Sequence record: OR352939.1
Origin: Escherichia phage AV109
Reading direction: 5' to 3' (one strand)
DNA: 64,000 nt
The notes beneath the pieces are model-generated. The model ran no database searches, was not told the origin of the DNA, and saw only the letters and a list, made by a program, of their open reading frames with translations. A program made the position numbers and the translations under genes. Below, in pieces: positions 183 to 52,230 of the stretch. Numbering within the stretch: position 1 is the stretch's first letter; every line of letters starts with the position of its first letter.

Positions 183-1355
183 TTATTCATCGAAATCTTC
201 CATTTCGTCAAGGTCGTTTTCTATATCTGCTGCAGACGGAGCATCAGAAGTTTTAACCGGAACTTTAGTTGTTGCTTTGCAATTAATAAGGTCGTTAACA
301 GCGTCATCAACTTCTTTAATAGAAGAGATAGCACCTAGTTTATATTTAGTTTCAATTGCATCTCGGAAAGGTTTGTGTTTAAACAAAGGTCCCCAGAATT
401 CTACACAATCAGTAGCTTTAGCACGCCATGATTTTTCTTCACGAATCATTTCACCTGTTTCTTCGTCAAGGAATTCGCGAGCATACCAACCGGCTTTAGG
501 CTTAACTACAAAACCAATTTCAGTTGCCATTTCTAACAAGCCACTGAATGGGTCAATACCGCCATCAAAATTAACCGTGATTGGGAAAGTAGATTTTTCT
601 TTAACGGTGCGAGATTTTTCTGCTTTCAACGTGAAGTCATAACCGGTCAATTCTGTACCTTCTTTAACCTGACGTTTAGAGATAAAGAATACAGTGTTAG
701 CAGAATAAAGAATACCTGTACCACCACCCATAATCTCTTTAGGATACAATCCGCCGATTTCCATTGCTGTATGGTTGATTGCAACACACGGAATATCTTT
801 AATAGTCAGATAAGGAGTCACAATACGGAAAAGAGATTTAAGTGCCTTAGCACGAGACATATCACCTACAACTTTCTCGTTCAATGCATCTTCAGTTTCT
901 TTCTTAGATGCAGTATTACCGATTGAATCGATAAAGATAATAACTTTATCACCCCGTTCAATCGCGTCAAGCTGATTAGTCATATCAACTTTAAGTTGTT
1001 CGACGGATTGAATCGGAGTATGAACTACACGGTCTAAATCAACACCCATTGAACGAAAATAAGATTCTGAAGCACCAAATTCTGAATCATAGAACAAACA
1101 AATTGCATCTTTATATTTCTTCATATATGCTGCAACCATGGTCAGTCCAAACAACGTTTTAAAGTGTTTAGAAGGAGCAGCAAAAATAGTCAAGCCTGAT
1201 TGCAATCCTGCATTCAGAGCACCACCTAGTGCAATATTCAACATTGGAATACGAGTAGGGACTTCATCACGATTATTAAACAGCTTAGACTTAGTCAAGT
1301 CTGCAGTCATTTTAGAAGTAGAAGCTTTAATCAGACGAGATTTTAAATCAGACAT
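183..1355 (-). CDS. uvsX: UvsX RecA-like recombinase
   Basis: 390 aa; N-terminus MSDLKSRLIKASTSK and overall sequence match T4 UvsX as I recall it; T4 gene order. Confidence 0.97.
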   Translation of the reverse strand: MSDLKSRLIKASTSKMTADLTKSKLFNNRDEVPTRIPMLNIALGGALNAGLQSGLTIFAAPSKHFKTLFGLTMVAAYMKKYKDAICLFYDSEFGASESYFRSMGVDLDRVVHTPIQSVEQLKVDMTNQLDAIERGDKVIIFIDSIGNTASKKETEDALNEKVVGDMSRAKALKSLFRIVTPYLTIKDIPCVAINHTAMEIGGLYPKEIMGGGTGILYSANTVFFISKRQVKEGTELTGYDFTLKAEKSRTVKEKSTFPITVNFDGGIDPFSGLLEMATEIGFVVKPKAGWYAREFLDEETGEMIREEKSWRAKATDCVEFWGPLFKHKPFRDAIETKYKLGAISSIKEVDDAVNDLINCKATTKVPVKTSDAPSAADIENDLDEMEDFDE

Positions 1356-1453
1356 TGTATTTTTCCATAGGCATCATTATATTTTACTCATGTTTAAAAG
1401 ATAAGATGATTATATACTAAGGGTTATACAGCATTTAAAACTTTAAATGGCTC

Positions 1454-2002
1454 TTAACGAGCCCATTTGATAATTTCTGTAATCAAATAATTACGTTCGC
1501 TTGCATTAAATCCTATAACTTTGTTAGCACCATCATGATTAAGTAATTGATACGTTTGGATTTTGTTATGAATTGCAAACTCTTCAAAATGTGAAATGAC
1601 TGTATTAAAACCGAATGAAGACAAAGTAATAAGGTCGTCTTCAAAACTTTCAGTCATTTCGTTACGTGTTAAAATAATTGTGAACACATCATGGTTTTGG
1701 CAAAGACGAACATAATCCTGTTCATAAACGTCAAGAACCGAGTCCGCATCTTGTCGAATACGTCCATAAACCCAGTTACTAATATATCCACGGTCTAACA
1801 GATAAATCTTAGTAGGGTCTAAATAATTCAACATCGTTTCGAAACAGCCAACTTCATTTCGAGACTTAACATCGAAACGTCCATCAACTGTTCGTTTAGG
1901 GAAATCAATTTTTACATATCTTTCACTAATTTCCATTATGTCATTAATGAAAGTTGTTTTACCAGCATTATCCGGTCCATCTACTAAAATAATTTTAGCC
2001 AT
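1454..2002 (-). CDS. P-loop kinase, thymidylate-kinase-like fold (nucleotide/nucleoside kinase candidate)
   Basis: 182 aa; Walker A GPDNAGKTT near N-terminus, DRGYISNWVYG resembles TMPK DRY..S motif; start abuts stop of upstream ORF. Confidence 0.55.
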   Translation of the reverse strand: MAKIILVDGPDNAGKTTFINDIMEISERYVKIDFPKRTVDGRFDVKSRNEVGCFETMLNYLDPTKIYLLDRGYISNWVYGRIRQDADSVLDVYEQDYVRLCQNHDVFTIILTRNEMTESFEDDLITLSSFGFNTVISHFEEFAIHNKIQTYQLLNHDGANKVIGFNASERNYLITEIIKWAR

Positions 2003-2003
2003 T

Positions 2004-2903
2004 TTATTCCTCGATTACGACATCTTCATATTTAGGTATATTATATGGTGAAGAAATTAAAGCATTAAAGTAGATGAACTCACCAAGACCTGGATGAAAT
2101 ACTTCTTCAGGATTTTCGAAATATTGAATCTTCGGACGTCCTTTAAGAATTTGATAGTACTCAGTTTTAGTTGGTTTAAAAATTCGAATCAACGCTTCTT
2201 CAGGATACTTATTTCTGTCAAAGCTATTATTTGGATCGGTTATATAAAGCGGTTGACCTAATTGAATTGCGCATTCAACAACTTGTTCAAAACGATAGCA
2301 TGGGTCACTAATTCGAAATGGATGAAAAATACCATCTAGATGAATAGGAGCCAAATCACCTACAAGACGCTGCATGATGGAAGGACGTATAACTTTCTGC
2401 GTTACGATAATCTTATTACCATCTGCACCTGCGTTAACCAGCACTTCTTTTTGACGTTCATTCAACACAGTTGTTTGGATTGAACGATTAACCGACAATA
2501 TGTCGGTTTTTAAGAATTCGTCAATATAAAAACGTGGTTTATTAGGGTCTGCGGTGATATTGAAATTGAATTCTACATCAAAAGCGCCGTCATATCCAGT
2601 GATATCTGTGATTAGAAAATCACAATCATAATAAGCAATTAATGAATCAACCACAAATTCATTTTCAGACCAGAAATATTTACGAGTGTTATACGCGTTA
2701 TCTTTATACCATAATGGAACAAACTTAAATTCTGGAAAAAGACGTTCGCATTCTTTAATATCAGATGCATTACGTGGATATGTAATCACATCACCCGGAT
2801 TAGCACGGTGCAAATGAAGTTGGAAGTTGCCATCCTTAAGGATAGCATACTGTCCAGTTTCATAAGACCGCATACTCAAGATAGGTACGCGGAAAATAGC
2901 CAT
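2004..2903 (-). CDS. hypothetical protein occupying the position of T4 beta-glucosyltransferase
   Basis: 299 aa ORF; start overlaps gene 42 stop by 1 nt (TAATG); no motif I can assign. Confidence 0.55.
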   Translation of the reverse strand: MAIFRVPILSMRSYETGQYAILKDGNFQLHLHRANPGDVITYPRNASDIKECERLFPEFKFVPLWYKDNAYNTRKYFWSENEFVVDSLIAYYDCDFLITDITGYDGAFDVEFNFNITADPNKPRFYIDEFLKTDILSVNRSIQTTVLNERQKEVLVNAGADGNKIIVTQKVIRPSIMQRLVGDLAPIHLDGIFHPFRISDPCYRFEQVVECAIQLGQPLYITDPNNSFDRNKYPEEALIRIFKPTKTEYYQILKGRPKIQYFENPEEVFHPGLGEFIYFNALISSPYNIPKYEDVVIEE

Positions 2904-3619
2904 TAGTCAAGGAATCCTTTAACATAATCAAAATCACGTTCAAACACATGGGCACTTACCATGGTATGAGTATAATCACCAACTTCTACACCACATTCGT
3001 TAGCGATATAATGAAGTAATTTTCCTTGGAGATAAAAATCCAACTGCATAACAACAGCACAGTTCTGGGAACGCATATGACAGTGGGTATAAAGCTTACC
3101 GTCACGAATATAATAGGTCACTGAGTCAGTACATGGATATTCAAGCGTTTCGTCTGAATCAAGCAAAGCCTGATCAGAACTTTCTAGAATTTGGAACACA
3201 ACTCTTCGGGAGTTAGGCTTCTCTTTAAGTTCTTTTAGAAGAGCTGGTAATTGAGCCGCAATGCGAGGACCATAGAAAGTGTTGAAGTTCGCCGGCAAAA
3301 CATCTGATTTTGGTTTAGAAATAAATTTAGCGACATTAGGATATGCCTTAAACGCTTCTTCTGCGTTGGTACCACCAGAAATCATAAACTTCCAGAAGTC
3401 TTCGGCATATTCATAAGAGATGCGGTTAATACGTGGGTCGGTCATTTTGAATGATGATGGAGTGTCAACAACTACTGTCATAGACCCAATTTCATTACAA
3501 CGTCCAATACGAGAATCAGTTACGAATTCCGGGTTTTCTAAAATTTCACGATTGACTGCTTTAAATGCGGCTTGAAAATCTGCGGCTTTGATATATTTCA
3601 TTGTGTTATGTTTTCCCAT
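2903..3619 (-). CDS. 42: dCMP hydroxymethylase (thymidylate-synthase fold)
   Basis: 238 aa; CTDSVTYYIRDGKLY...HMRSQNCAVV region resembles T4 gp42 catalytic core; position between uvsX and 43. Confidence 0.85.
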   Translation of the reverse strand: MGKHNTMKYIKAADFQAAFKAVNREILENPEFVTDSRIGRCNEIGSMTVVVDTPSSFKMTDPRINRISYEYAEDFWKFMISGGTNAEEAFKAYPNVAKFISKPKSDVLPANFNTFYGPRIAAQLPALLKELKEKPNSRRVVFQILESSDQALLDSDETLEYPCTDSVTYYIRDGKLYTHCHMRSQNCAVVMQLDFYLQGKLLHYIANECGVEVGDYTHTMVSAHVFERDFDYVKGFLD

Positions 3620-3661
3620 GTTTACCTCAATACAATTTATTATATACTCAATTTGTAAAGC

Positions 3662-3901
3662 TTATTTGAATTTCTTGGCAATGTTGATATAACGTAAAGC
3701 TTCAGTATCAATACTTCCAAGAACACTATGAAGAAATGCATCAGCGTAGTATTCCAATTGAACAGGTTCTTTAATCACTTTAGCCGCTTTGGTTTCAAAC
3801 AGGCCCATCAGGGCCTTTTTAAGAATTTGTTCGTTAGTGTTCAGTTTAATAGTCAAAATCTCTTCGTTAAGTTTATAATTAAAAGTTTTTCTAGAAATCA
3901 T
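3662..3901 (-). CDS. hypothetical protein (79 aa)
   Basis: ORF; start overlaps stop of upstream 389-aa ORF (ATGA). Confidence 0.5.
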   Translation of the reverse strand: MISRKTFNYKLNEEILTIKLNTNEQILKKALMGLFETKAAKVIKEPVQLEYYADAFLHSVLGSIDTEALRYINIAKKFK

Positions 3902-5067
3902 TCCGGGTACCTCAAAGCGTCATCAGAGTTAGTTATATCAATAATAGATATAGAGTTTTCTGCTAACCCGTTTTTAGATAATTGACGTTTATAATATCTT
4001 TCACAATATGTACACGTCGTCCCGCAGATTTCATTAGCACAATCGAAATCTGGATGTCTGAACCACCTTTTTTCTAAAAAGCCATCTAACAAAGAGGTTT
4101 CAATATTTACTGTATGTGAAAACTCAGTTTCGTTTTCAAGAGTGAAAATGGTCTCTAAAGGCTTCCACAGTTCTAACAAATTACCTTCAAACTTTTCAGA
4201 AGCGTATGCTTCAAGAACTTTCAAAATGTAGTCTGTGCTACCTGTACGTCCTGAAACTTTGAATTGAGTGATACCAATATCATTATAAAGTTTCAAATCT
4301 TGAGGACGAACAAAACGAGTTCTCAACCAGTTAAATGGGTCTGTATCACGAGCTTTAATACAGTGCTGCATAGGATATCCGTTTAAGGATTTAGCATCAT
4401 CAGCTGTAACATCAGTACTATGGAAAATATAGCAAGAGTCACGATAGCTACAATGTGTTGTATACCCTTTACCAGCATTAGAACAGAACTCATTTACAAG
4501 AACTTCAAATATTATATTGTTCTTATTGCAAAACTCTGCTGCACGCTTCAGGAAAGAAACTGAACGGTTCTTATGAATTCCGCAGCAGACCTTTTTGATA
4601 TTATACTGGTCATGCAAGTATTTGATTTGAGTTACAGCATCGACATGTAGAATTGTTGAAACTTCAATCTCAATGTCTTTATTGACTTCACGAACAATTT
4701 CCATAACAACAGGGTTAGCGATAGTAATACGCCATACGCCTATTGACCAAAGATACTGAACATAATCCTGAATAGCTTTCTTCTTCCACTCAACTAGTTC
4801 TCTTTTTGAACCAGGATTTATCGTGTTGAGTGTATAGTTAAAGCAAATACCTAATTCGTTACAACGTTTAACGTAGTCTTCTAACATCTTTTTGTCAACG
4901 TCAGGAAGCCTAAAATCAGGTCTGGCTGCTACAAAAGCCATTTCTCTTGTAGAGCCATATACTTCGTTTATCAAGCTATTAGGATAGGTTTTATTGAGCT
5001 CTACGATTTTATCAAGAAGAGCTAAATCAAAATTCGTTCCGATTTTAAAAGTATTCATTTTTTGCAT
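3898..5067 (-). CDS. hypothetical Cys-rich protein; candidate transferase or Fe-S enzyme of the sugar-modification module
   Basis: 389 aa; EVLVNEFCSNAGKGYTTHCSYRDSC and C-terminal CANEICGTTCTYC cysteine clusters; loosely reminiscent of U32-family signature but not a strict match. Confidence 0.55.
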   Translation of the reverse strand: MQKMNTFKIGTNFDLALLDKIVELNKTYPNSLINEVYGSTREMAFVAARPDFRLPDVDKKMLEDYVKRCNELGICFNYTLNTINPGSKRELVEWKKKAIQDYVQYLWSIGVWRITIANPVVMEIVREVNKDIEIEVSTILHVDAVTQIKYLHDQYNIKKVCCGIHKNRSVSFLKRAAEFCNKNNIIFEVLVNEFCSNAGKGYTTHCSYRDSCYIFHSTDVTADDAKSLNGYPMQHCIKARDTDPFNWLRTRFVRPQDLKLYNDIGITQFKVSGRTGSTDYILKVLEAYASEKFEGNLLELWKPLETIFTLENETEFSHTVNIETSLLDGFLEKRWFRHPDFDCANEICGTTCTYCERYYKRQLSKNGLAENSISIIDITNSDDALRYPE

Positions 5068-5113: not shown

Positions 5114-5500
5114 TTATAGATTCGGTTTATACGATTTAAATGTTTCGAATTCGCCTTTATTCATAAGAGCTTTGAATTCGTCAGGACGCATAGCTTTGTC
5201 GTCGATAATCCAATCATATACTGGTTTATGTGTTAGCAAATTATGGTACTTCAAGCCAATGTTTGCCAAGTTCTGAATCAGACTTGGGAGAATGTCAATT
5301 GCTATACGACCAGGACCTACTGACTTCATACCGCGAGCAGTGTAAAGCGTTATGGTATGCCCTGCATCATACAGGGCATTAATGGCAGACACCATTTCGA
5401 CGTCTGGTTTGAAGTTCACGTAATCACGATTGTTATTCCACTCTGTTATACAATCATCGACATCAAAACAAAGATTAAGCATGTTTTCTACACGGTGCAT
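5114..5500 (-). CDS. HAD-like phosphatase (putative sugar-phosphate phosphatase)
   Basis: Motifs FDVDDCIT, TLYTARG, conserved K, WIIDDKA consistent with HAD motifs I-IV; probable start at the ATG overlapping upstream stop (TAATG); track ORF extends to 5515. Confidence 0.5.
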   Translation of the reverse strand: MHRVENMLNLCFDVDDCITEWNNNRDYVNFKPDVEMVSAINALYDAGHTITLYTARGMKSVGPGRIAIDILPSLIQNLANIGLKYHNLLTHKPVYDWIIDDKAMRPDEFKALMNKGEFETFKSYKPNL

Positions 5501-7185
5501 TAGATTCGTTCCCATTGATGAGTGATATCGCCACCGATTGGACGATAGGAAACACCAGTTTCTTTATCAGTTAGTACCCATTTACCAGGATTTTTTGTAA
5601 TCAGAGTAGCCGTTACAGGTTCTGCTACGTCATAACTAATAGAGCCGTCCTGAAGTACACGGCCCATGTTACGTAATTGCTTAGTCAGAAGTTCCATACC
5701 TTTATAATATGCGGCTACCGCTTTAAGTGGATTATTCTTGAAATAACCACCTAATGCAATCCAGATAATTGCCACAGCCAAATGATGATATTCATTAAAC
5801 GAACTCAGCTTTCCATATTTGTAAACTAATGGATTGATGTTAATAGTCACATTACAAGTTGTTTCATCAATAGTAAACTGTCCCCAGGTCGGATTAGCAT
5901 TGAATTCATCATAACCTGAAACAGCATAAAGCACTTTAGCTTCATCATACAATTTTGGCCCGTAAATCTTGGTTTCACCAAAATATCCACGAGGGTCGAT
6001 AAATTTGACTTCGCCGTTATCAGTAATCATAGTATTACTGAAGTTCGGGTCACCATGAATAACAGAGTACTGTCCCTGAGAACGGTTATGATAACGAATA
6101 AGGTGTTCTAAAGCTTGTTTCAGCATTGGCTTCAGACGTCCAATCTTAGTGTAGTTCACATGTGTGATTTTACCAAATGAATCAATCAACGGTTGAATGC
6201 TTTCACAACGATCAATAACTTTCGTATAGAATTCTTTAGTGAAATCACGACGAACAGTTTCAGGACTTACAAAATAAGTGTCTGTGCTGAATTTCAGTGC
6301 ATCTAAAATTGCATCAACAATTTGTGGACGAGCAAGACTTGATTTGGATTTAATATATTCAAATGCCGGCTTACCTTTAATGCGTTCCATTTCAAAGTTA
6401 TTTTCATTAACAGAAACTAACTGAGGAACTGAATCTGATTTCACTTTAAGATACCATGAAATCTCATCTTTCTGAAGAGCTCGACCTTGTTCAGTTAATG
6501 CGAATTTAGTTACAGTTTCTTCACCAATTTCAACTGCATTAAAACTACGATTAAGTTCACGAACTTCATGAGCCTTTTCAAGTTTAGGCATATCACCAAG
6601 GTCGATGATATTCATAAGCTCTGATTTATTGAATGCGCCGCTGTAAAGGAATTCTACGAAATCACGTCCTTTGCAGTATTCATGAATTTCCTCATCGGTA
6701 GAACCCATGTAGAATTCCCAGTCTTTGAACTGGTAAATTCCCACAACATTACCACCTGTTGAACCTACGTTAGTGATATTTTCACCATCGAAATTATATC
6801 GACATTCGTCACCCTTAACATAGATTGCGTTAACATTCCAAGACCATGAACCAAAATCAGGAATAATATCACACCAGTTAACAATTACGTTATGGCCGTC
6901 TAAATCTTTGTGTAATTTAGCAAGAGCATAAGCAGAACCATACGCTTCATCGACTGTACGAATAGTCACATTGAACCCTTCTTGCTCACAATAAGCTCGA
7001 ACAGTTTCAGCAAATTTTGAATGAACTACTACAATAATTTCATCTGCGCCAAGGTCAGAATAAATTGTATACAAATTGCTCAGAATAGTGTCTTGTTTAT
7101 AGTTAACAAGCACCTTAGGAATATGGTGAGTAATTGGATATAAACGAGTTGCCAATCCAGCACCAAGAATAACAGCTTTTTTCAT
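5500..7185 (-). CDS. bifunctional sugar-1-phosphate nucleotidyltransferase (N-terminal) / sugar kinase (C-terminal, APH/choline-kinase fold)
   Basis: 561 aa; N-terminal ILGAGLATRL nucleotidyltransferase glycine loop; C-terminal HGDPNFSNTMI...FIDPRGYFG kinase catalytic loop; SD GAGGA upstream. Confidence 0.8.
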   Translation of the reverse strand: MKKAVILGAGLATRLYPITHHIPKVLVNYKQDTILSNLYTIYSDLGADEIIVVVHSKFAETVRAYCEQEGFNVTIRTVDEAYGSAYALAKLHKDLDGHNVIVNWCDIIPDFGSWSWNVNAIYVKGDECRYNFDGENITNVGSTGGNVVGIYQFKDWEFYMGSTDEEIHEYCKGRDFVEFLYSGAFNKSELMNIIDLGDMPKLEKAHEVRELNRSFNAVEIGEETVTKFALTEQGRALQKDEISWYLKVKSDSVPQLVSVNENNFEMERIKGKPAFEYIKSKSSLARPQIVDAILDALKFSTDTYFVSPETVRRDFTKEFYTKVIDRCESIQPLIDSFGKITHVNYTKIGRLKPMLKQALEHLIRYHNRSQGQYSVIHGDPNFSNTMITDNGEVKFIDPRGYFGETKIYGPKLYDEAKVLYAVSGYDEFNANPTWGQFTIDETTCNVTININPLVYKYGKLSSFNEYHHLAVAIIWIALGGYFKNNPLKAVAAYYKGMELLTKQLRNMGRVLQDGSISYDVAEPVTATLITKNPGKWVLTDKETGVSYRPIGGDITHQWERI

Positions 7186-7226: not shown

Positions 7227-7370
7227 CTAGTTAAAGCATTCATACTTTGCTTGTAGTCCAATCATAATCCATCCAATTACAAGTGTTGGAATCATTACCG
7301 GAGCCGTTAAGCTCCAGTAGATAGTCATGACAAGCATCAATAGTAAAAGTCCTATTGTTATTGCTTTCAT
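7227..7370 (-). CDS. small hydrophobic membrane protein (47 aa), not in ORF track
   Basis: MKAITIGLLLLMLVMTIYWSLTAPVMIPTLVIGWIMIGLQAKYECFN; ATGA overlap with SIS gene stop; SD GAGG 8 nt upstream. Confidence 0.45.
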   Translation of the reverse strand: MKAITIGLLLLMLVMTIYWSLTAPVMIPTLVIGWIMIGLQAKYECFN

Positions 7371-8002
7371 TGTTCGCCTCGTAACATGGCACCTAGTGCA
7401 CCGCCTGGATGGAACTTAAGGAAATCATTAGAGGTAAATCCACGTTCAGACGAAAGGTTGATAGCAAACGTATCGATAAGCGCTAACAACAATGTAGTGG
7501 ACATTGTCGGAGCTAAAGAGTTCTCGTCAACTTCTACCGCGATACCAGTACAGAACGTATAATCAAAAAGAGCTTCGTATTCTTGTGGAATGTCAGGGTT
7601 ACAATGTAACAGAATCTGTTTAACCTGAGGACGAATCATACGAAGATGTTTAGCAACACCTATCATTTCTTCAGTCTTACCAGAACGACTAATATGAATC
7701 AACACGTCATTAGGTGCAATAAATCCTGCGTCACCATGAGAATAATGCCCAGTGTTCAAATACATGCTAGGAATACCTAGTGAAGCAAATGTCTCGGAAG
7801 CTTTAGTTGCGATATTAGCATTCTTACCAACACCTGTAATAATTACCCGGCTTTCATAATTACTAAGTCCAGGGCGTCGAAGAGTTTCTAGAATAGCATT
7901 ATAACGAGCAGGGTTTTGACTAATTACTTTGGCCATAGCGGCCAAAGAAGAAGCTTGTTTTATGATTGCGTCAATAGCGATAGTAATAGGAGTAGTTTTC
8001 AT
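7367..8002 (-). CDS. SIS-domain sugar-phosphate isomerase, arabinose-5-phosphate isomerase (KdsD/KpsF) type without CBS domains
   Basis: 211 aa; GVGKNANIATK, SRSGKTEE, LAPTMSTT and HPGGALG motifs characteristic of API SIS domains. Confidence 0.8.
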   Translation of the reverse strand: MKTTPITIAIDAIIKQASSLAAMAKVISQNPARYNAILETLRRPGLSNYESRVIITGVGKNANIATKASETFASLGIPSMYLNTGHYSHGDAGFIAPNDVLIHISRSGKTEEMIGVAKHLRMIRPQVKQILLHCNPDIPQEYEALFDYTFCTGIAVEVDENSLAPTMSTTLLLALIDTFAINLSSERGFTSNDFLKFHPGGALGAMLRGEQ

Positions 8003-51495: not shown

Positions 51496-52230
51496 TTACC
51501 TTAAGATTGTTTCAATTTTAGAATAAAGCTCTTCTAAAGAGCCGTCGTTTGTAATAACTAAATCGCCTTCTTCAATAGGCAACCCAGCTTCTGTAATATG
51601 TTTATCAGTGGATTCCGTACCAGAGCGAACCACATGAATAACTGTAGCACCCATCGCTCTAGCGGTTTCCATTTCATGGACTTGACGTGTATCGGTTACA
51701 ACATAGTAATCGAAATCACTTCCAATATAATCCATATAGTTTAATGCAAAAAGCTTAACCCAATACATACGGTCAAATAAATTAACGACAACATCCGTAC
51801 CGAGGGCTTGCATAAGACGGCGGATTGACCATGTGTCGTTGATATTATTTATAGCTTCACGCAGGGCTTCATATGGTTTAATATCTAGATACGAATATCC
51901 ACCTTCTAACGATGATAATACTTTAACATTATTAATTGGTAAATATTGACTTTGCAAATAAATTAGCGCTTCTTCCAATAATTCAATAACATCCAACTTA
52001 TTGATATTTAATGGCGTTTCACGGTCATATCCGATACCTTCAAAGTATTCGTATTTCAACTCTGTGAATACATCAGGATTTTCAGCATGCCTACGTCCCC
52101 AGGCTATTGCTAGAGAGTCTTTAATTGGATATGCTAATTGGTATTTTACGGATTTAAAGTTTGAATTGATGTAATCAGCAGTAGTGTCTTTACCACTACG
52201 TTTGATGCCACTTAAAAAGATTAGCTCCAT
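51496..52230 (-). CDS. 1: deoxynucleoside monophosphate kinase gp1
   Basis: 244 aa; MELIFLSGIKRSGKDTTADYI... WSIRRLMQALGTDVVVNLFDRMYWVKLFAL matches T4 gp1. Confidence 0.95.
   Translation of the reverse strand: MELIFLSGIKRSGKDTTADYINSNFKSVKYQLAYPIKDSLAIAWGRRHAENPDVFTELKYEYFEGIGYDRETPLNINKLDVIELLEEALIYLQSQYLPINNVKVLSSLEGGYSYLDIKPYEALREAINNINDTWSIRRLMQALGTDVVVNLFDRMYWVKLFALNYMDYIGSDFDYYVVTDTRQVHEMETARAMGATVIHVVRSGTESTDKHITEAGLPIEEGDLVITNDGSLEELYSKIETILR

Follow-up and report, generated by a model that had tools for sequence, protein, structure and literature searches.

Gene order and junctions at the locus

We analyzed a window of 64,000 nucleotides (nt) from Escherichia phage AV109 (sequence record OR352939.1), a Mosigvirus (RB69-like T-even phage), in which an initial annotation had placed two open reading frames (ORFs) of 299 and 182 amino acids (aa) beside gene 42, for deoxycytidine monophosphate (dCMP) hydroxymethylase. 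Both ORF sizes are exact and both genes lie on the minus strand, in a region (bases 1300-3700) that shares 99.3% identity with Escherichia phage AV118 and >98% with many genomes of the RB69 group. The minus-strand order runs from a thymidylate synthase (TS) homolog through the 299-aa ORF and the 182-aa ORF to a 98-nt gap and uvsX, which equals the order in the RB69 annotation (RB69p048, p047+p046, p045, uvsX). The features of this locus are:

3620-3661, minus strand: 42-nt leader of the three-gene unit, read from the sequence
2903-3619, minus strand: 238-aa TS homolog, ortholog of RB69 gp48 (Pfam, PDB identity, residue signature)
2901-2905, minus strand: TAATG stop/start overlap of the TS homolog and the 299-aa gene (sequence reading)
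2004-2903, minus strand: 299-aa predicted GT-B glycosyltransferase (GT), ortholog of RB69 gp46:47 (AlphaFold2 model, phrog_3891, synteny)
2000-2006, minus strand: TAA-A-ATG junction of the 299-aa and 182-aa genes, with a 1-nt gap (sequence reading)
1454-2002, minus strand: 182-aa P-loop kinase of thymidylate kinase (TMPK) fold, ortholog of RB69 gp45 (fold, phrog_761, synteny)
183-1355, minus strand: uvsX

The claim that the two genes stand in place of the T4 beta-glucosyltransferase gene is correct, because T4 carries gene 42, b-gt, segA, and uvsX at the equivalent position, with b-gt (and segA) filling the slot between gene 42 and uvsX. In the RB69 reference (NC_004928 24597-25497; L085 1699-2599) the GT gene is split into RB69p047 and RB69p046, a split attributed to sequencing error by Lee et al. 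2026 (PMC13326640). In AV109 and most relatives the equivalent is a single intact 299-aa ORF.

The three genes are tightly packed. The junction from the TS homolog to the 299-aa gene reads gacTAATGgct, a 1-nt overlap, and equivalent -1 or -4 overlaps occur at the TS/GT junction in most related loci. The junction from the 299-aa to the 182-aa gene is gaGGAaTAAaATGgct, with a 1-nt spacer and a good Shine-Dalgarno sequence (GAGGA) shortly upstream; in other lineages the GT/kinase junction is an overlap of 4-26 nt. Both genes had been described as abutting gene 42 with overlaps, which holds for the 299-aa gene and its TAATG junction with the TS gene but not for the 182-aa gene, which does not abut the synthase gene and follows its own neighbor across the 1-nt gap. 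Since stop/start overlaps of 1-26 nt recur at the corresponding junctions across dozens of divergent loci, this packing is not chance; the T4 42/b-gt junction is a 23-nt gap. No terminator-like hairpin appeared in a scan of 1300-4000. The leader contains aaGCTTTA, 11 nt, and TATAAT, with a GAGGT Shine-Dalgarno sequence 5 nt ahead of the ATG. Judged by eye against the T4 middle-promoter (MotA box and -10) consensus, this leader appears to resemble a MotA-dependent middle promoter, and a sigma-70 promoter scan showed no enrichment. The suggested co-expression of both genes with modified-dCMP synthesis is supported by the tight junctions and by the linkage across lineages described below.

The synthase, the predicted glycosyltransferase and the kinase

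Judged by its residues, the 238-aa TS homolog is a flavin/O2-dependent 5-hydroxy-dCMP (5hodCMP) synthase. It matches Pfam Thymidylat_synt (2.3e-15) and is 98% identical to PDB 9iqc/9ir2/9iqu and 25% identical to T4 gp42. Aligned to Escherichia coli ThyA it has E143, C146, N169, and D177 (signature ECRSND), and so joins D169N, N177D, and an acidic residue 143 to near-identity with a characterized member; T4 gp42 retains D169 (E. coli ThyA numbering). D169N is diagnostic for 5hodCMP synthases, and RB69 gp48 and other D169N homologs make 5-hydroxy-dCMP with O2 and a flavin that they bind loosely (Lee et al. 2026, PMC13326640). Asn169, the 25% identity to gp42, and the 98% identity to 9iqc rule out a dCMP hydroxymethylase, so the gene 42 label was a misidentification. 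The associated hydroxymethyl-dCMP chemistry gives way to 5-hydroxy-dCMP, given the N169 signature, the 9iqc identity, and the activity of RB69 gp48. RB69 cytosines are 5-O-(di)arabinofuranosyl-5-hydroxycytosine, not arabinosyl-hydroxymethylcytosine (PMC13326640; confirmed by PMC13390438), and we assign the trio to the gene cluster with which RB69-type phages hypermodify their DNA to 5-O-arabinosyl-hydroxycytosine.

Structure prediction, and only structure prediction, resolved the 299-aa protein, which by its model is a compact GT-B glycosyltransferase. The remote homology search proposed in the initial annotation gave no sequence-level match for this protein (and a TMPK-like fold for the 182-aa protein): there was no Pfam match at E <= 0.1, no NCBIfam match, and nothing among PDB sequences by single sequence (phmmer) or with a 45-sequence family profile. 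Its sole family match is phrog_3891 (function unknown; E = 8.4e-156). The AlphaFold2 model, built with the family alignment as input, has a predicted local distance difference test score (pLDDT) of 94.8 and a predicted template modeling score (pTM) of 0.89, and displays two Rossmann-like beta/alpha/beta domains with an interdomain cleft, as in the GT-B fold (GT4-like). What had been called an unknown fold is therefore a GT-B glycosyltransferase in this model. Invariant residues of the family in the C-terminal half are R197, S199, D200, K246, and H270-P271-G272; inspection by eye only mapped no canonical EX7E motif.

Several lines of evidence point to the step that this GT may catalyze. It is orthologous to the RB69 gp46:47 group, with a full-length match and a position directly after an N169-type TS homolog, and RB69 gp46:47 is "arabinosyltransferase 1" in Table 1 of Lee et al. 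2026 (PMC13326640), with which the AV109 result agrees. In Shewanella phage Thanatos, whose DNA is mono-arabinosylated, this GT is the only one (PMC13326640), and Bas46 with its other arabinosyltransferase (Aat) deleted is a viable phage. We predict that the 299-aa protein is the first (base-proximal) arabinofuranosyltransferase on 5-hydroxycytosine (5hoC). It had been put forward as a second transferase candidate; the GT-B model bears out the transferase, but its predicted place is the first, the second arabinosyltransferase being the RB69 gp3 homolog, which is absent from the window. PDB 9iqz is a homolog of RB69 gp3, the other GT. The Thanatos ortholog of the 299-aa protein, TH1_063 (MT457552 55465-56355), is 47.5% identical. 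Homology with T4 b-gt was considered and rejected, as BLASTP found no sequence similarity (E = 1.6) and genomic position alone is shared. The GT family is acidic, with a median isoelectric point (pI) of 5.1 vs 9.05 for T4 b-gt, but pI is indecisive between a DNA and a nucleotide acceptor because T4 alpha-glucosyltransferase (6.1) and RB69 gp3 (6.3) are also mildly acidic.

The 182-aa protein is a predicted kinase for 5-substituted dCMP. Its AlphaFold2 model (pLDDT 89) has the nucleoside-monophosphate kinase fold nearest to TMPK: the closest folds are nucleoside-monophosphate kinases, the best match is vaccinia TMPK (A48R, 2v54), and identity to type I TMPKs (vaccinia A48R 2v54, human, yeast) is 16%. 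It also matches phrog_761 "thymidylate kinase" (2.4e-45), and its family profile matches TMPK sequences at E = 0.005-0.08 over the N-terminal 40 residues, which include the P-loop and an FP(x)R motif. Fold, vaccinia match, and profile matches together sustain the earlier description as a TMPK-like P-loop kinase. The P-loop G9-P-D-N-A-G14-K15-T16 and D70-R71 are invariant in 24 kinase-family sequences, as are F34-P35-K36, S75, and R113; G14, K15, and R71 stay invariant once distant relatives are added, and Gly occupies the third place of the DR motif. The invariance of the P-loop, F34-P35-K36, D70-R71, S75, and R113 argues that the protein is probably an active enzyme. An Acinetobacter member matches PF13521 (AAA_28). 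Distant relatives adjoin ThyX or other TS-family genes, the placement one would expect if the kinase acts on its neighbor's product. The 182-aa protein showed no homology to T4 gp1 (phrog_139/PDB 1dek), whose type is encoded elsewhere in the window:

51496-52230, minus strand: 244-aa T4 gp1-type deoxynucleoside monophosphate (dNMP) kinase, analog of RB69 gp159 (phrog_139, 5.3e-59)

AV109 therefore carries two unrelated dNMP-kinase-like enzymes. RB69 gp159 converts 5hodCMP to the diphosphate 5hodCDP (Lee et al. 2026, PMC13326640).

Linkage across phages and neighboring genes

The synthase, GT, and kinase genes are linked across divergent phages. An IMG/VR scan with the GT alignment yielded 58 loci, and clustering of the GTs at 90% identity gave 41 lineages. 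The kinase lies within the locus in 39/41 and directly beside the GT or synthase gene in 35/41 (directly downstream of the GT in 29, directly upstream of it in 4, and directly upstream of the TS in 2), while the TS homolog is directly upstream of the GT in 31/41. The 5hodCMP-synthase signature (N169/D177) is present in 51 of the 53 TS homologs found. Linkage survives rearrangement, with a kinase-TS-GT order and two 4-nt overlaps in some lineages. Among sequenced phages, tblastn found the kinase in 343 genome records and the GT in 342, with a near-identical genus breakdown.

The trio also has exceptions and variants. Non-T4-like contigs (with a DnaE-type polymerase and RecA) carry a dUTPase_2-family gene, GT, kinase, GT1, and U32; the dUTPase_2-family (PF08761) gene is possibly a dCTPase/dUTPase, and this pyrophosphatase-GT-kinase-GT1-U32 order points to a nucleotide-level route. 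The same trio occurs in Rhizobium phage RL38J1 (gp214-216), which uses hexoses (Lee et al. 2026, PMC13326640), so the kinase goes with the hydroxylated base and its first transferase rather than with arabinose. In locus L052 (3615-6201) a TS homolog with Ser169 is followed by GT1 and UDP-galactopyranose mutase (Pfam GLF 5.6e-34), which suggests a galactofuranose version of the modification. Locus L053 (5452-7107) encodes a 551-aa fusion of an HAD-like phosphatase (N-terminal DFDG motif) and a GT1 domain; the fusion gene immediately follows that of an N169-type TS and precedes genes for a SIS isomerase and a 523-aa protein. A GT::kinase fusion was considered for L053 and rejected, since the extra domain is the HAD-like phosphatase; no kinase was detected in the L052 or L053 loci.

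Morganella phage MP1 (NC_031020) has an intact kinase ortholog, 54% identical, between polymerase and uvsX (the MP1 coordinates concerned are L079 20500-21030 and L081 42020-42859). The protein annotated as its thymidylate synthase, gp154, carries Asp where E. coli has N177 and reads SCVH in place of PCH at the catalytic Cys, residues that hint at a dCMP-directed enzyme.

Upstream of the trio, the AV109 window encodes a U32-family protein and a set of sugar genes:

3898-5067, minus strand: 389-aa U32-family protein (RB69 gp50; Pfam Peptidase_U32 7.4e-11)
5114-5515, minus strand: 133-aa HAD-like phosphatase (RB69 gp51/AfhF analog), converting arabinofuranose (Araf)-1,5-P2 to Araf-1-P (phrog_1238, literature)
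5500-7185, minus strand: 561-aa bifunctional nucleotidyltransferase and sugar kinase (RB69 gp52:53/AfhE analog), making UDP-arabinofuranose (UDP-Araf)
7367-8002, minus strand: 211-aa SIS-domain arabinose-5-phosphate isomerase (RB69 gp55; Pfam SIS 4.8e-10, related-record annotation, literature)

The 561-aa protein matches Pfam NTP_transferase (8.4e-10) and has weak kinase-family matches; the UDP-arabinofuranose role of this enzyme type and its sugar-kinase step are assigned from the literature. The phosphatase and bifunctional enzyme genes overlap by 16 nt (5500-5515), and in some close relatives a homing endonuclease lies between them (L001 12157-12918, phage NRG-P0074). Between the genes for the bifunctional enzyme and the isomerase lies a strongly hydrophobic 47-aa ORF (7227-7370, minus strand). 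It is conserved (phrog_3610), and the HY126 and NRG-P0074 records annotate it; by its composition it looks like a small membrane peptide inside the nucleotide-sugar cluster. The Afh gene names are absent from the HY126 GenBank record. Public labels in the cluster are often misleading: the bifunctional enzyme appears as "dCMP deaminase" and the HAD phosphatase as "phosphoheptose isomerase", and GT1 or the TS homolog is called "RNA polymerase binding protein" or "dCMP hydroxymethylase".

The RB69 counterpart of the U32 protein, gp50, is labeled "sugar or heterocycle reductase" by Lee et al. 2026 (PMC13326640). Close U32 homologs occur in five GT/kinase lineages without an N169-type TS (L051, L054, L055, L057, and L059), of which four lack any TS in the locus and the fifth has an ordinary ThyA-type TS only; in L051, L054, and L059 the order is kinase-GT1-U32. 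An N169-type TS is present in 33 lineages, 10 of which also have U32, and every informative locus has an N169/S169-type TS, U32, or both. The U32 enzymes RlhA, TrhP, and UbiU/V are O2-independent hydroxylases, and RlhA makes 5-hydroxycytidine in rRNA (references 65 and 66 of PMC13326640). Because U32 enzymes hydroxylate without O2 and distribute in this way relative to the TS, the phage U32 protein may serve as an alternative, anaerobic hydroxylase of cytosine C5, which we offer as a lead rather than a result.

Proposed pathway, rival explanations and known systems

We hold with moderate confidence that a conserved, tightly coupled trio (5hodCMP synthase, GT-B glycosyltransferase, and TMPK-like kinase), of which the two ORFs are the final members, acts as follows. 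The TS homolog would hydroxylate dCMP at C5 with flavin and O2, as shown for its orthologs. The 182-aa kinase, as the module's own enzyme and alongside the gp1-type kinase, would convert 5hodCMP to 5hodCDP and so enable polymerization into DNA; it would be essential in phages that lack gp1 and retained in T4-like phages. The 299-aa GT would then move the first D-arabinofuranose from UDP-Araf to the cytosine 5-hydroxyl, as its fold, synteny, and a published hypothesis suggest, the donor coming from the neighboring isomerase, bifunctional enzyme, and phosphatase. The second arabinose would come from another GT, the RB69 gp3 homolog, whose gene lies elsewhere, and stop/start coupling would keep the three proteins co-expressed. 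In Acinetobacter phage DLP3 a third arabinose is added on DNA, and for the first arabinosylation Lee et al. 2026 cannot tell whether it occurs on the mononucleotide or on DNA (PMC13326640).

A number of observations weigh against this pathway. The 299-aa protein is unmatched by curated GT families (Pfam Glycos_transf_1/Glyco_trans_4, NCBIfam). The DLP3 GTs taken singly, presumably including gp79, were inactive on 5hoC-DNA with UDP-Araf or UDP-arabinopyranose (UDP-Arap) (PMC13326640), and TH1_063 has been published as a UDP-xylose pyrophosphorylase based on one liquid chromatography-mass spectrometry (LC-MS) assay, a report that conflicts with the confidently modeled GT-B fold and needs re-examination. 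For the 182-aa protein, PF02223 was not reported at E <= 0.1 and TIGR00041 gave 16 bits vs a cut-off of 83.25. Since the RB69 gp1-type kinase accepts 5hodCMP, a second kinase acting on 5hodCMP alone would be superfluous in T4-like phages, where the 182-aa kinase gene is almost universally retained despite the gp1-type kinase. MP1 lacks homologs of the synthase, GT, U32, HAD, bifunctional enzyme, and isomerase (first 150 of 163 kb searched), in agreement with Nikulin & Zimin 2021. Finally, the accessible literature contained no assay demonstrating activity of either the 299-aa or the 182-aa protein.

Some of these points would be explained if glycosylation were pre-replicative, with the GT making 5-O-Araf-dCMP from 5hodCMP and UDP-Araf, the kinase acting on the glycosylated dNMP, phage polymerase incorporating the glycosylated deoxynucleoside triphosphate (dNTP), and later arabinoses being added on DNA. 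The inactivity of single GTs on 5hoC-DNA, in a study that leaves the stage of the first arabinosylation open (PMC13326640), fits such a route, as does the acidity of the GT family. Moreover, no pair is coupled more tightly than the GT and kinase genes, which overlap by 4-26 nt in most lineages, and the kinase is kept in about 343 genomes though gp1 handles 5hodCMP; on this reading the TMPK-like kinase would exist to serve a product too bulky to do without a dedicated dNMP kinase. Vaccinia TMPK, the best structural match of the kinase, tolerates bulky 5-substituents, and host repair glycosylases act on bare 5-hydroxycytosine in DNA, which a phage would therefore do well to avoid. Nevertheless, we consider this route unlikely. 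We know of no glycosylated dNTP that is incorporated naturally, the known phage DNA glycosylations all being post-replicative. The pI argument is weak given the values for T4 alpha-glucosyltransferase and RB69 gp3; MP1 has the kinase without the GT, and L052 and L053 have synthase and GT with no detectable kinase. The third arabinose, moreover, is demonstrably added on DNA.

Other rivals concern one protein at a time. The 182-aa protein could be an ordinary or auxiliary dTMP/dNMP kinase that hitch-hikes in a plastic region and has no specific modification role, in keeping with its TMPK fold and motifs, the thymidylate kinase label in many records, the MP1 kinase that is kept without modification genes, and the ThyX or ThyA-like neighbors of distant relatives. 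However, near-perfect co-occurrence with the GT (343 vs 342 genomes) and linkage to the 5hodCMP-synthase/GT pair through rearrangements and in non-T4-like phages render this quite improbable; T4 is without this kinase at the corresponding locus, and a gp1-type kinase, which covers dTMP in T4, is already present. It is very doubtful that the 299-aa protein is a UDP-pentose pyrophosphorylase that makes the activated sugar instead of transferring it onto cytosine. With UTP and xylose-1-phosphate, TH1_063 did produce in vitro a mass signal for UDP-xylose, but in a single LC-MS assay, and the transfer tests of the Thanatos study used acceptors without a 5-OH; pyrophosphorylases have a different fold, one pyrophosphorylase already lies within the 561-aa bifunctional enzyme, and the GT gene is tied to the hydroxylase, not to one sugar pathway (it also occurs with UDP-galactopyranose mutase and in hexose clusters). 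We give least credence to a kinase that phosphorylates the 5-hydroxyl of cytosine in DNA (like the 5-hydroxymethyldeoxyuridine DNA kinases of thymidine-hypermodifying phages), arabinose, or arabinose phosphate. A P-loop kinase does sit in a hypermodification cluster, arabinose had been proposed as a substrate in the initial annotation, and the Acinetobacter member matches PF13521. Yet its nearest folds are nucleoside-monophosphate kinases, and glycosyl transfer to a hydroxyl requires no phosphate activation. Arabinose in particular is an unlikely substrate, and an arabinose-kinase role was rejected, because the sugar-kinase step is assigned to the AfhE-type bifunctional enzyme, here the 561-aa protein, and the kinase is also found with galactose/glucose-type clusters (RL38J1 gp214-216).

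Arabinosyl-hydroxycytosine DNA shields a large T4-like group, including Mosigvirus, Acinetobacter, Klebsiella, and other phages that are used therapeutically, from restriction, CRISPR, and DNA-glycosylase defenses. The 299-aa and 182-aa genes are core members of this pathway, at a biologically important spot that is already mapped. He et al. 2026 and Mahler et al. 2025 reportedly treat the same cluster. Both genes are already known, because they are tabulated in earlier work: Nikulin & Zimin 2021 list RB69p045 as a TMPK homolog "presumably" in arabinosyl modification, along with the associated gene p047. The table of Lee et al. 2026 (PMC13326640) gives the two proteins as a putative first arabinosyltransferase and a "nucleotide kinase", with structural matches that are essentially those obtained here. 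What is added here is the quantitative linkage of the trio, the MP1 exception, and the U32 side observation. Settling the kinase substrate and the stage of sugar attachment would bring either ordinary closure of the pathway or nucleotide-level glycosylation, and pre-replicative glycosylation, if true, would be the first natural case, of interest to nucleic-acid chemists and engineers of modified DNA.

Comparison with known systems places the AV109 trio closest to its RB69 counterparts. RB69 gp46:47, DLP3 gp79, and Thanatos TH1_063 form the same "arabinosyltransferase 1" group (phrog_3891), the difference being that RB69 gp46:47 is two ORFs in the reference and a single intact ORF in AV109. RB69 gp45, DLP3 gp78, and RL38J1 gp214 ("nucleotide kinase") share the TMPK-like fold and the trio position of the AV109 kinase, which is 98.9% identical to RB69p045 with no substantive difference. 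T4 gp42 and the AV109 synthase have in common the TS superfamily, the catalytic Cys, and the N177D dCMP-specificity residue, but T4 gp42 has D169, uses folate, and makes 5-hydroxymethyl-dCMP, whereas the AV109 protein has Asn, and flavin/O2 and 5-hydroxy-dCMP take their place. T4 b-gt and the 299-aa protein occupy the same slot (from the TS-family gene to uvsX) and share broad GT-B architecture and, as predicted here, the transfer of a sugar onto a C5-linked cytosine hydroxyl. They differ in acceptor and donor (5-hydroxymethylcytosine and UDP-glucose in T4, predicted 5-hydroxycytosine and UDP-arabinofuranose for the 299-aa protein), in pI (9.05 vs 5.1), and in the T4 42/b-gt junction, which is without overlap. 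Unlike in type I TMPKs, the P-loop Arg is an invariant Asn in the 182-aa subfamily (distant relatives keep the Arg), and the enzyme linked to the kinase modifies dCMP instead of making dTMP. Its proposed functional analog would be T4 gp1, each phosphorylating the modified dCMP of its own phage.

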